Origin: Escherichia phage KS_A8
Strand: one strand, 5' to 3'
Sequence record: PP627279.1
DNA: 59,853 nt
The notes under the pieces were generated by a model that had not been told where the DNA came from, ran no database searches, and saw only the letters and a program-made list of their open reading frames with translations. The position numbers and the translations under genes were made by a program. Position 1 is the stretch's first letter; every line of letters begins with the position of its first letter. This document shows, in pieces, positions 25,699 through 34,382 of this stretch.

Positions 25699-27676
25699 AT
25701 CCCATGTCTTCGAGATACTTCTCTGCTTTAGCTATATAAGCATCATAATCTATGTCGTCCGGTATTTTATCCGGTAGCGTCATGATTGGGACACCTCCCG
25801 CGCTACCAGCTACACGGTTGCCCGAGTTAGCATAGATTATTTCGGGAGTTTCTTCATTGGTGCTTAAATACCAGCGTACAACCTTACCCAAAAATTCGCC
25901 ATTCCATACCGCGCCGCCTTTCACCGCACGTAGGATAATGAATTTTCTAATATCGTTGCAATTGCGTATAGTACGAGAAACAGGCGTACCGTGGGCCAAA
26001 CATTCACATACAGCTTCCATAATAATTTCACCAGTACAGTTCTTTTGAAGCCCTGTTTTCGCGAACCAGCCTTTACGTTTAATTTCAACATTTCCTTCCT
26101 CATCAGGTTCTTTTACTGCAACATAGTTATTGACGTTAGCACTGTACAGCTTGTCATAGTAGTTGGATTCCATTTCAAAGCCTGTCACAGACTCCCACCA
26201 CTTGATCATGTTATCAACGAAGTCCTGCATGTGGTCAGGATACTTAACCACAATACCATCCGTGTTAGCTGAAATTACTTTAACACCGTTCAGCTCAAAC
26301 GCTTCAATGAGCATTAACAGCGATAGCTGTCCGGTGATAGTTACCTGTATCAATAATTGCGGCGCGTACAATACAGACCACATTGAACCCAATTTACCGA
26401 ACGATCCGTTGATTACGATCTTCAGCGTGTTGGCTGTGTTCTTGTCCCCTGAGTGCTTAGCCGCAATACGACGGTCTACAATGCTTTTATAAACACGAAG
26501 GAACGCTGGTCCCAACTGTTCGGGGTATAAGCCCTGATTAAGAATAATTGAAGGGTAATAGGATGTTACGTCAATGTCCCGCTTCTTAATACCGGGCTCT
26601 TTACCGTGACCAGCACACTCTTCGGAGCTATGCAAACCGCCAATACCCATACGGTAGACACCGTCCGCAATCTTGATTTCAAGACCTGTTAACGCTGGGG
26701 GCAAGCTAACGCCACCGTTATCGCTAACAACAAAACGGCAGTCCCGAACAATATCCAAAACACTATTCATCAGAGGTGTTTGAAAACGAATAAAGTCCGG
26801 TATGTTATATGCATACTTAGTTCCAGGATAAACTTGCGGACGCTGCGGACGCACGCCCGTTAACGCTTGAATTTCGTGTTTAATTACGTCTTCTGCAATC
26901 TGCGCATCAGAACGTGAACGCAGATCCACACCGTATTCTTGCGACATAATTTCACGAAGATGTAAAGGTTCCTGTAATGCAATAAAACATTCTTCCGTCT
27001 GTACAAGGTCGTTAATACAGTACCAGCGTACAATTAACATCTGGTCCTGCGTCAACATTGTATTTGGCTTAAATGGTAAATCCTGCATACGGCGAGTATG
27101 TACACGTCCGCCATATTGTTTCAAACCACCAGATCCAGGCAGAACTTCCATAATATCAATGTGGTTAACGTTCTGCATACGCTTAAGGCGGTAACTCTTC
27201 AACACATCGGAAGGACGCCAATCTTCCACGATTATCTTATCGGTTGCGTCTTTAAGCTGCGCATTAGAACAGCCGTTAAGCGCAAGCGTAGCAATGGGCA
27301 TATCGTACCCGTTACCGTTAAAGCTTACGATAAGGAAGTTTGTCATTACCCAGTTAAGTAACAAGCAATTTAAACTACAACCGTGATACATTTCGAAGTA
27401 GACAACTTTCTTAGTTCGCACTCCGCGAAATGCAATTAAGAAATAGTTTGGATAACATTCAATATCGTATACAAGCGGTTCGCGGTTAATCCATGCTTGA
27501 ATAAGTTCGTCCTGCGTATATAGGTTGTATTGGAAGTTCCGCGCTTCCTCAAGGTTAGGCAGATAATCCGGGCGCTCCCAAGTGCGCTCCGGCGGTAAAC
27601 GTTTAACCTTTTCTTTCTTTGCTTTTGGCTCAGGCGGTAAGTCCTGCCAAAAGAAACCAATAGCATCTGTCCGCAT
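25691..27676 (-). CDS. DNA polymerase, family B-like, with 3'-5' exonuclease domain
   Basis: Exo motifs YDIECYP and FNGNGYD; polymerase motifs DVTSYYPSIIL (motif A-like), KIVINGSFGKLGS (motif B-like), ANTDGIVV (motif C-like). Start set at MRTDAIG (RBS GGAGA; TAATG overlap with clamp stop). Confidence 0.65.
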   Translation of the reverse strand: MRTDAIGFFWQDLPPEPKAKKEKVKRLPPERTWERPDYLPNLEEARNFQYNLYTQDELIQAWINREPLVYDIECYPNYFLIAFRGVRTKKVVYFEMYHGCSLNCLLLNWVMTNFLIVSFNGNGYDMPIATLALNGCSNAQLKDATDKIIVEDWRPSDVLKSYRLKRMQNVNHIDIMEVLPGSGGLKQYGGRVHTRRMQDLPFKPNTMLTQDQMLIVRWYCINDLVQTEECFIALQEPLHLREIMSQEYGVDLRSRSDAQIAEDVIKHEIQALTGVRPQRPQVYPGTKYAYNIPDFIRFQTPLMNSVLDIVRDCRFVVSDNGGVSLPPALTGLEIKIADGVYRMGIGGLHSSEECAGHGKEPGIKKRDIDVTSYYPSIILNQGLYPEQLGPAFLRVYKSIVDRRIAAKHSGDKNTANTLKIVINGSFGKLGSMWSVLYAPQLLIQVTITGQLSLLMLIEAFELNGVKVISANTDGIVVKYPDHMQDFVDNMIKWWESVTGFEMESNYYDKLYSANVNNYVAVKEPDEEGNVEIKRKGWFAKTGLQKNCTGEIIMEAVCECLAHGTPVSRTIRNCNDIRKFIILRAVKGGAVWNGEFLGKVVRWYLSTNEETPEIIYANSGNRVAGSAGGVPIMTLPDKIPDDIDYDAYIAKAEKYLEDMGYA

Positions 27677-28629
27677 TAGACACGTTCTCCAATTAATACA
27701 CCGCGAAGATTTTCCCCAAAGAATGCGCAAGGTTGCGGATACAAACTAAAGTCCGCAGTCTTAACCACATTTTCAAGCAATAGCAGGATATCAATATTGT
27801 ACACTCCCGTAATTGTCCGGTCCTGCAATACGAAGCTTGCACCTTCCGCATCATCATAGTGAGTACGGGCTATACCGTTTTCAATATATACACGAGGTCT
27901 GTCTTCAGCGAATGGTTTGATTTTATGCAAGCCTTCAAAAAGACCTGGATCAACAGGATGTGCATTGCATTGAACATTTAAAATACGACGTATATCGGGC
28001 CACTCGGCATCAATAAGCTGTGTGCGCAACCAGCGACCTTCCGGATAATGAAACGTTACATTGTTCTTGCTAACCTGAATATGTGTCGGGTTAGCCTTAA
28101 TGCGCAATATTTCTTTAATTGCAACAGAAGGTATTATGCAGTCGATAGGAAACTGATTGCCAAACCAGTATTCCGCAATTGTGACGTTATTCGTAGCAAA
28201 CAAACTACCGTTATTAATCAGAATACCGCAAGCCCACGGACGGGAAGCATCCGAGCCTACAAATGGAGCAACTGACTTCACACCTTGAACGAAGCGAGCA
28301 CCATCTATTCCGTATAAATCACCTTCAGGGAATACGTGCGGCGTTTCTTTATCAATACAGCGTATAGCAACACGAAACGGACCTGACTTGATATTCAGCT
28401 TACCGTTAGCCATCATTGTTAACTGCACTGTTTCATCACAGTTTGAAATAGCTTTAATCATAGGCCCAGCTTCGGGCTTGCAATCAATATCCAACTCAAT
28501 AGGGCTACCCAGTGCGATAACACCGTTAAAGCCCTGTACTTGGCCGTCACGAATAAGAAAACTGGTAAGCCCTTCTACCAGTTCCTTTTTAGCGACGGAG
28601 CCTTGAACAAATTTAAGAGCGTCTAACAT
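27676..28629 (-). CDS. DNA polymerase sliding clamp (beta-clamp/DnaN-like, putative)
   Basis: 317 aa; internal DAEWPDIRRIL resembles the E. coli beta-clamp FPDYRRVLP motif (from memory); translationally coupled to the polymerase. Confidence 0.4.
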   Translation of the reverse strand: MLDALKFVQGSVAKKELVEGLTSFLIRDGQVQGFNGVIALGSPIELDIDCKPEAGPMIKAISNCDETVQLTMMANGKLNIKSGPFRVAIRCIDKETPHVFPEGDLYGIDGARFVQGVKSVAPFVGSDASRPWACGILINNGSLFATNNVTIAEYWFGNQFPIDCIIPSVAIKEILRIKANPTHIQVSKNNVTFHYPEGRWLRTQLIDAEWPDIRRILNVQCNAHPVDPGLFEGLHKIKPFAEDRPRVYIENGIARTHYDDAEGASFVLQDRTITGVYNIDILLLLENVVKTADFSLYPQPCAFFGENLRGVLIGERV

Positions 28630-28856
28630 TAGCGATCCTCGATTGCTCTAATTGTGGTTAAATCTAATTCACAGGTTGGAGGGTATCCATAAAGTCCCAT
28701 TTGTTTTCCTTGTGCATTAAACCATGTGCCTGACGGATCCTGCCACTGCTTAGGTGTCTTGTGGAGAAATACTACTCTGTTTTCACCGTAATAATTAATT
28801 CTTACGCCTGTGTGAGTATATTTACGTTTACCTTTTGGTCTTCTTAAGTTAGCCAT
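28629..28856 (-). CDS. hypothetical protein
   Basis: 75-aa basic ORF between dpdA and the clamp. Confidence 0.25.
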   Translation of the reverse strand: MANLRRPKGKRKYTHTGVRINYYGENRVVFLHKTPKQWQDPSGTWFNAQGKQMGLYGYPPTCELDLTTIRAIEDR

Positions 28857-33420: not shown

Positions 33421-33675
33421 TTAAACCTCCGTTAATGTTTGAGTCCAGTCTAAGCCTTCAAGGTCTACATCAGCTATTTCATCGTACTCGTAAGCTCCCG
33501 GATCTGCTGGCAGCCATCTATCAAATCGATGACTGAGTTCTGGAGGAATTGCTTCATACCCCCAAACCTTCCCATCCTTGTCGGCTGCCAGATAATCAAC
33601 TCGACTTGGAACGGTTAAAGTGACACCACAAAAATTAACATCTTTAGTATGCACAACCTGACTTAATACACGCAT
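33421..33675 (-). CDS. hypothetical protein (paralog of 54998-55300 product)
   Basis: 84 aa; shares AADKDGKVWGYEA and VDLEGLDWTQTLTE segments with the 54998-55300 protein. Confidence 0.3.
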   Translation of the reverse strand: MRVLSQVVHTKDVNFCGVTLTVPSRVDYLAADKDGKVWGYEAIPPELSHRFDRWLPADPGAYEYDEIADVDLEGLDWTQTLTEV

Positions 33676-34382
33676 TATTCCACCCCGATATATTTGTGAA
33701 CCTGAAGCTGCAACGTGTACCCGTGTTTCATACAGCTTTTGACAACCGCTTGGATGTTACTGTGGTTAAGATCTTCATCCTGCTCGTCCATTGGCTGCAA
33801 ATATATCTTACCTTTGAACCCCTTCGGAGGTCTAGCGATAAATGGCGTAGCTTGATGATCTAATGCTTGAAGCGGTAAACCGTCTTCCACGTTTACACAG
33901 CACGCTTTAAGCACATATTTAAATGCATTTGCACGGTACAGCACAGAAGGATGAATTTTTGAAGTCTTAGGACTGCATACAATTACAGGTAACTGGGAAA
34001 AGTTCTTAGGTAAAGGCATAGACCCGTTAGTTTCAATCTGTACAAGATACCCGCGCGATAACAGTTGTTCAATAAACGGGTTAATTTGCTGACGGAACGG
34101 TTCACCCCCAGTAATGACCACAAGTGAGGTGCTATTGCCTGATTCCAGCTTACGGCTTTCGATTAAACGCATGATATCAACAATGTGGTAAAGAGAACGA
34201 CCAACAGTATAATCCGTGTCGCAGCCCGGGCATTGCAGGTTACATCCAGCAAGGCGCACAAATACCGCAGGTTGACCGCAGAATGGACCTTCACCCTGAA
34301 TGGTAGAGAATACCGAATGCACGTCTAAATACATATCGTTTTCTTTAGAACGAGACTCGGGAGCTTGTTGATTAATATTCAT
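33675..34382 (-). CDS. queE: 7-carboxy-7-deazaguanine synthase (radical SAM)
   Basis: 235 aa; Cys cluster AGCNLQCPGCDTDY near N-terminus as in QueE radical-SAM enzymes. Confidence 0.8.
   Translation of the reverse strand: MNINQQAPESRSKENDMYLDVHSVFSTIQGEGPFCGQPAVFVRLAGCNLQCPGCDTDYTVGRSLYHIVDIMRLIESRKLESGNSTSLVVITGGEPFRQQINPFIEQLLSRGYLVQIETNGSMPLPKNFSQLPVIVCSPKTSKIHPSVLYRANAFKYVLKACCVNVEDGLPLQALDHQATPFIARPPKGFKGKIYLQPMDEQDEDLNHSNIQAVVKSCMKHGYTLQLQVHKYIGVE

Follow-up and report, generated by a model that had tools for sequence, protein, structure and literature searches.

Gene clusters for replacing guanine by 7-deazaguanines in DNA are already known from tailed phages, and the one considered here, in Escherichia phage KS_A8 (sequence record PP627279.1; 59,853 nt, analysed whole and called the window below), has its closest described relatives in the phages CAjan (Seuratvirus) and 9g (Nonagvirus). 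The CAjan cluster was characterised chemically and genetically in 2019-2020, and the same genes are annotated in dozens of Seuratvirus records. In CAjan, liquid chromatography with tandem mass spectrometry found dPreQ0, the deoxynucleoside of 7-cyano-7-deazaguanine (preQ0), as the sole 7-deazaguanine, at 70,628 per 10^6 nt or ~32% of G, and a CRISPR-made dpdA deletion lost all modification and all restriction resistance (PMC6884629). Deletion of queC lowered dPreQ0 12-fold, with the remainder coming from host preQ0, and by nanopore sequencing the modified G lies in GA and GGC motifs (PMC7544227). Phage 9g has a QueC fused to an amidotransferase (Gat-QueC, 471 aa) and for that reason makes dG+ (2'-deoxyarchaeosine) rather than dPreQ0. 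Its folE, queD and queE complemented the matching E. coli mutants, and its dpdA on its own put dPreQ0 into plasmid DNA in E. coli (PMC6884629).

The segment 28856-34382 of the window is very probably the same module, the 7-deazaguanine DNA modification that is the signature of Seuratvirus, and would yield dPreQ0. An earlier note, made from the letters of this DNA, had named six open reading frames (ORFs) as pathway genes, and the ORF listing has all six at the coordinates it gave, on the minus strand:

28856-29776, minus strand: DpdA, predicted DpdA1-type DNA guanine transglycosylase / preQ0 insertase (306 aa)
30051-30692, minus strand: FolE, GTP cyclohydrolase I (213 aa; PF01227, TIGR00063)
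30695-31216, minus strand: QueD, 6-carboxytetrahydropterin synthase (173 aa; PF01242)
31718-32197, minus strand: putative preQ0 transporter, a short Vut_1/COG1738 (YhhQ-like) membrane protein (159 aa)
32318-33025, minus strand: QueC, 7-cyano-7-deazaguanine (preQ0) synthase, without an amidotransferase domain (235 aa)
33675-34382, minus strand: QueE, radical-SAM 7-carboxy-7-deazaguanine synthase (235 aa)

All four enzymes of preQ0 synthesis (FolE, QueD, QueE and QueC) are present with their catalytic motifs. The motifs quoted in the earlier note (CEHH, a Cys/His zinc motif, the radical-SAM cysteines, SGGxDS and, in DpdA, FLDSGAFS) were each recovered by regular expression, and the C-terminal zinc cysteines of QueC (SHTCYNG...GYGCGECPAC) are visible in its translation. 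FolE, with CEHH at residue 98, matches PF01227 at 1.7e-61 and TIGR00063 at 187.5 bits, above the cut-off of 181.6; it shares 94.2% identity with its CAjan counterpart over 171 aa, the N-termini being different, and 80% with 9g FolE. QueC (SGGQDS at residue 22) matches PF06508 at 1.1e-74 and TIGR00364 at 242.6 bits (cut-off 150.3), and is 97.0% identical to CAjan QueC. QueE carries the radical-SAM cluster CNLQCPGC (CX3CX2C) at residue 47, matches PHROG 2076 at 1.7e-68, and shares 99.1% identity with CAjan and 64% with 9g. QueD, with CRHLHGH at residue 24, matches PF01242 at 2.6e-22, above the Pfam PTPS cut-off. The route proposed from these genes, in which FolE, QueD, QueE and QueC make preQ0 and DpdA inserts it, is the pathway published and experimentally shown for CAjan (PMC6884629, PMC7544227).

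DpdA differs from the CAjan enzyme at a single residue (P182 in place of A; 99.7% identity), and the identical sequence has already been deposited from other independently isolated phages. FLDSGAFS begins at residue 61. The protein matches a phage family model, PHROG 887 (“queuine tRNA-ribosyltransferase”), at 2.3e-96, and a fold search puts it in the tRNA-guanine transglycosylase (TGT) superfamily, with the TIM-barrel catalytic fold. In the homology model of CAjan DpdA by Kot et al., nine residues make up the pair of catalytic aspartates and the pocket for preQ0/guanine; all nine (D63, D206, S64, F67, D105, H132, G153, G154 and F189) are retained, and they are invariant in 41 homologs.

A number of results weigh against this assignment of the cluster. 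No TGT match (PF01702) was found in a Pfam search of DpdA at E<=0.01. The NCBIfam DpdA model NF041059 gives 17 bits where 200 are required, and the PADLOC DpdA model 16 bits, both on residues 147-212. A phmmer search of PDB with the protein found nothing, and a 41-sequence DpdA profile run against PDB gave just a chance match at E=2. The AlphaFold2 model is of moderate quality, with a mean predicted local distance difference test (pLDDT) score of 67 and values below 50 in the C-terminal third. Among the biosynthesis enzymes, QueD reaches 61 bits with TIGR03367, below the equivalog cut-off of 89, and is a divergent allele (77.7% identical to CAjan, 69.7% to 9g), while QueE stays below the equivalog cut-offs of the five NCBIfam QueE models that it matches (1e-20 to 1e-27). 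The membrane protein matches Vut_1 at 2.2e-5 with 25.3 bits, short of the 27.2 needed, and its pairwise similarity to E. coli YhhQ is non-significant. In addition, the modification chemistry, its need for dpdA, the motifs targeted and the shielding from restriction come from CAjan and 9g, and are carried over to KS_A8 by analogy, from its genes.

The curated DpdA and TGT models that fail are built on bacterial DpdA or on tRNA TGTs. By the earlier note, the reading would be refuted if profile searches could not place the protein at 28856-29776 in the TGT/DpdA family. The outcome is divided: the curated Pfam, NCBIfam and PADLOC models do not place it, whereas PHROG 887 and the fold search do. 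The failure was not taken as a refutation, because the fold search and the orthology to a validated enzyme outweigh it and are decisive for reading the ORF as a predicted DpdA1-type transglycosylase of the TGT superfamily. Its near-identity to CAjan DpdA suggests that it would insert preQ0 into DNA, not tRNA.

During infection, then, FolE would convert GTP to dihydroneopterin triphosphate, from which QueD would make 6-carboxytetrahydropterin, QueE 7-carboxy-7-deazaguanine and QueC preQ0. DpdA would flip guanines out of double-stranded phage DNA after replication and exchange them for preQ0, with D206 as the presumed nucleophile and D63 deprotonating the incoming base. Insertion of preQ0 is considered to be a post-replicative base exchange (PMC10516641). 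By analogy with CAjan the targets would be G in GA and GGC, giving dPreQ0 at ~28-32% of G, and the modified DNA would be shielded from a subset of restriction enzymes. The YhhQ-like protein would probably import or retain preQ0 or a precursor.

The prediction of dPreQ0, rather than another 7-deazaguanine, is made because no Gat domain, QueF or ArcS was detected. A tblastn search with 9g Gat-QueC found no Gat domain anywhere in the window and aligned through the QueC half alone (residues 241-457). The sole QueF signal among the window proteins is a weak, sub-threshold T-fold cross-match on FolE, as expected. Pfam scans were also run on the short ORFs of those segments, outside the tail fibre, that have no CAjan counterpart and on 20 further ORFs of unknown function, 30 in all; no QueF, QueF-L, ArcS, amidotransferase or methyltransferase appeared in these 30, which do not cover every small ORF. 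A hidden enzyme of this kind was therefore rejected as far as both searches reach, and they agree with the earlier note, which had argued from the lack of QueF and of a Gat-QueC fusion to 7-cyano-7-deazaguanine as the base. Counted on both strands, GA and GGC occupy 7,579 sites, or 28.3% of G; this corresponds to 63,313 per 10^6 nt, close to the dPreQ0 content measured in CAjan.

A further derivative as the final base (dG+, dADG, dPreQ1, or a methyl or formyl form), made by an unrecognised enzyme among the unassigned ORFs, is very unlikely. About 9.5% of the window lacks a CAjan counterpart, most of the small ORFs have no family assignment, and phage deazaguanine chemistry has repeatedly been more diverse than predicted (PMC10516641); these points speak for it. 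Such an enzyme might be encoded by the 84-aa ORF 33421-33675, by one of the ORFs within 48769-50273, or in the variant N-terminal part of ORF 31213-31716. These are, however, just 58-242 aa long, without enzyme-family matches, and a signal for Gat, QueF, QueF-L, ArcS or a methyltransferase is missing from every ORF scanned. The 84-aa ORF also occurs in the BASEL phage WildeMaa and is paralogous to a second ORF of the window, and the C-terminal domain of 31213-31716 is found in 724 phage records, most of them without the cluster. A slightly smaller chance attaches to a change of product or of target motif, away from CAjan-type dPreQ0 at GA/GGC, brought about by isolate-specific ORFs or by the divergent QueD; here the candidates would be QueD itself, 33421-33675 again, and the same variant N-terminus.

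That the preQ0 genes serve mainly to boost host queuosine or tRNA modification, and not to modify phage DNA, is lower still on the scale and can be given little credence. Hutinet 2019 describes 48 phages that have preQ0 or G+ genes without DpdA, and this role was suggested for them. KS_A8 does have DpdA, with fold and catalytic residues intact and all but identical to the enzyme on which DNA modification in CAjan depends; moreover, 9g dpdA did not complement an E. coli delta-tgt strain. Least probable of all, to the point of being barely credible, is that the genes are present but the system inactive, so that KS_A8 DNA is canonical. A single substitution can have this effect, as in phage HK243, where an escape mutant with G217E in DpdA lost all dPreQ0 (bioRxiv 10.1101/2025.10.29.685425), and KS_A8 DpdA does differ from that of CAjan at residue 182. 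On the other hand, G217 is kept along with all catalytic residues, the six ORFs are intact, and the occurrence of the same DpdA sequence in other independent isolates argues for purifying selection. A working CAjan-type module producing dPreQ0 is accordingly preferred to each of these readings.

Compared directly, KS_A8 and CAjan have the same gene set, order and strand, with the cluster placed between polymerase/clamp and helicase, and no Gat domain in either. The differences are few: the divergent QueD and FolE N-terminus, CAjan gp39 (absent from the window), the extra 84-aa ORF at 33421-33675, and an ORF of unknown function between queD and the yhhQ-like gene that is just 53% identical. None of them touches a known catalytic step. 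QueD stands out with 77.7% identity where its neighbors have 94-100%, and FolE departs from CAjan over its first ~40 residues too, which looks like local mosaicism, judged from these alignments, within an otherwise conserved cluster.

Phage 9g has homologous DpdA (68.8%), FolE (80%), QueD (70%) and QueE (64%) in the same position in the replication block. The amidotransferase half of its Gat-QueC has no counterpart in the window, and its cluster has no annotated YhhQ-like gene. Pseudomonas phage iggy (Queuovirinae) has a DpdA 71.9% identical to that of KS_A8 and the same dPreQ0 product. The iggy DpdA has a strict single motif, GA, with ~16.5% of G modified (PMC10484667); CAjan-type DpdA differs from it in modifying GGC as well.

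Resemblance to the bacterial Dpd restriction-modification system (DpdA/DpdB/DpdC of Salmonella Montevideo; PDB 7ui4) goes no further than the 16-17 bits of DpdA. Aside from that weak DpdA hit, no PADLOC model for DpdB, DpdC or other Dpd partners matched any of 10 cluster proteins. Membership of such a system, with its DpdB ATPase, DpdC and DpdD-K, was rejected on these 10 proteins, in what is a phage genome. The extent of modification differs too, at 0.1-30% of G for phage DpdA1 and <0.1% for the bacterial DpdA (bDpdA; PMC10516641). Archaeosine TGT (arcTGT; PDB 1iq8/1j2b) and bacterial TGT are ~15-16% identical to the window DpdA, which consists of the catalytic domain only, as against 577 aa for arcTGT, and has DNA rather than tRNA as its predicted substrate.

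The membrane protein at 31718-32197 is 100% identical to CAjan gp41, annotated as “putative preQ0 transporter.” It has several hydrophobic segments and is short, at 159 aa compared to 221 aa for E. coli YhhQ. TIGR00697 matches it at 1e-4 (22.2 bits, with a cut-off of 50.95). Its 108 homologs are ~155-190 aa long; most of them, including one that is 98% identical, carry a precomputed PF02592 assignment, and the source records of several call them YhhQ or queuosine precursor transporter. Direct likeness to E. coli YhhQ was discarded as a basis for placement, and the protein is therefore taken, from its PF02592-bearing homologs, as a probable short phage-type member or close relative of Vut_1/COG1738 with a putative function. 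As a preQ0 transporter it is a candidate by inference only.

DNA hypermodification with 7-deazaguanines is a phage counter-defence against restriction, and it complicates the sequencing and cloning of phage DNA. DNA containing dPreQ0 is also a target of dedicated bacterial defence glycosylases (bioRxiv 10.1101/2025.10.29.685425). Resistance to many restriction enzymes, as the earlier note had it, is too broad. Some protection is to be expected, since in CAjan DNA HaeIII is blocked and BamHI cuts partially, but EcoRI and SwaI cut (PMC6884629). The BASEL paper, which describes the deazaguanine modification as the signature feature of the genus, reports good resistance of its Seuratvirus phages to type I and II systems, with sensitivity to type III. 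With modification of ~28-32% of G, the claim would better read a subset of enzymes. For annotation, which is where the practical value lies, the cluster predicts dPreQ0 at ~28% of G, HaeIII resistance, and nanopore signal shifts at GA/GGC.

Restriction sites were also counted over the whole window on both strands, with expectations from base composition and no codon-aware null. Several are depleted: EcoKI (AACN6GTGC; 0 observed against 6.3 expected, and also 0 in CAjan), KpnI (0 against 11.4), PstI (1 against 11.4), XbaI (1 against 17.5), BamHI (2 against 11.4) and HaeIII (59 against 150). HindIII sites (47 against 17.5) and CAGCAG (63 against 23) are enriched. EcoRI has 7 sites and SwaI 4. 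Neither EcoKI nor KpnI sites include a G that must fall in a GA/GGC context, and in a PstI site the last G alone can be in one, depending on the flanking base. Site avoidance, as measured against base composition, may therefore cover what a motif-limited modification cannot.

The pathway genes proper (28856-34382) lie within an unbroken series of minus-strand genes in the ORF listing for 25000-37500, and they are flanked by replication genes:

25691-27676: DNA polymerase, flanking the cluster
27676-28629: DNA polymerase III beta-like sliding clamp (PHROG 947, 3.6e-81)
35934-37916: helicase, on the other flank of the cluster

The location in the replication block given for the cluster in the earlier note is thus right, between polymerase plus clamp and helicase, though its left boundary at 27676 is not: 27676-28629 is the sliding clamp and holds no pathway gene. 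Between the pathway genes lie seven small or unknown ORFs. The junctions from polymerase to QueE are mostly overlaps of 1-8 nt or gaps of 0-2 nt, the close packing expected for one co-transcribed module.

At the nucleotide level the cluster is 92-95% identical to more than 30 GenBank records of Seuratvirus (Queuovirinae) in which the same genes are annotated, several of them with the labels FolE, QueD, QueE, “dPreQ0 synthase QueC,” “preQ0 transporter YhhQ” and “7-deazaguanosine inserting enzyme DpdA.” The first 25 kb are 91-96% identical to the same phages, from base 1. CAjan aligns collinearly over 90.5% of the window, in blocks of ~78-98% identity (most of them 91-98%), beginning at base 1 of both sequences, and the best-matching records are all Seuratvirus. 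Because of this collinearity and the high identity to Seuratvirus records, the window is classed as a complete Seuratvirus (Queuovirinae) coliphage genome. The segments without a CAjan counterpart are 18950-21713, 31432-31633, 33422-33672, 48769-50273, 50985-51170, 53511-53904 and 54581-54938.

Among the small ORFs in the cluster, 31213-31755 (minus strand), between queD and the yhhQ-like gene, probably has its true start at an ATG at 31716. In its C-terminal ~80 aa it shares 48% identity with 9g gp07 and matches several PHROGs of unknown function, while the N-terminal half varies among Seuratvirus isolates. Its presence in both Seuratvirus and Nonagvirus clusters made it a candidate pathway accessory, which was rejected: the 724 phage records with the C-terminal domain are mostly 41-46 kb Salmonella and Escherichia siphoviruses without a deazaguanine cluster, and the domain is a common phage domain, not a pathway component. 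Two adjacent ORFs between queC and queE, 33027-33215 and 33208-33420 (minus strand; 62 and 70 aa), have no family match and seem to be tandem paralogs, aligning pairwise at E 4e-5 with 42% identity over 26 aa; both are kept in CAjan, at 87% and 97%. The 84-aa ORF (33421-33675, minus strand) lies upstream of this pair, adjoins queE and is absent from CAjan, though present in WildeMaa. Its paralog is a 100-aa ORF in the early region (54998-55300, plus strand; 32% identity over 71 aa, E 9e-10). Directly upstream of queE is 34452-35261 (minus strand), encoding 269 aa rich in Ala, Lys and Glu, with a run of about nine Ala and no Pfam or PADLOC family; its CAjan ortholog is annotated with an FtrA transcriptional-activator domain.

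Elsewhere, most of the lateral tail-fibre gene at 18615-21719 (18950-21713) is unalignable to CAjan. This is the host-range variable region of these phages, and the BASEL paper describes the same dip in similarity at the tail fibre. The 1.5 kb segment 48769-50273, which has no CAjan counterpart, contains a 242-aa ORF (49261-49989, minus strand) and two small ones, with no Pfam family among them. Finally, the 130-aa ORF at 56049-56441 (plus strand) matches the YspA/cpYpsA-related SLOG family (PF10686) at 2.1e-18, and its CAjan ortholog is annotated as “GTP-binding domain.”

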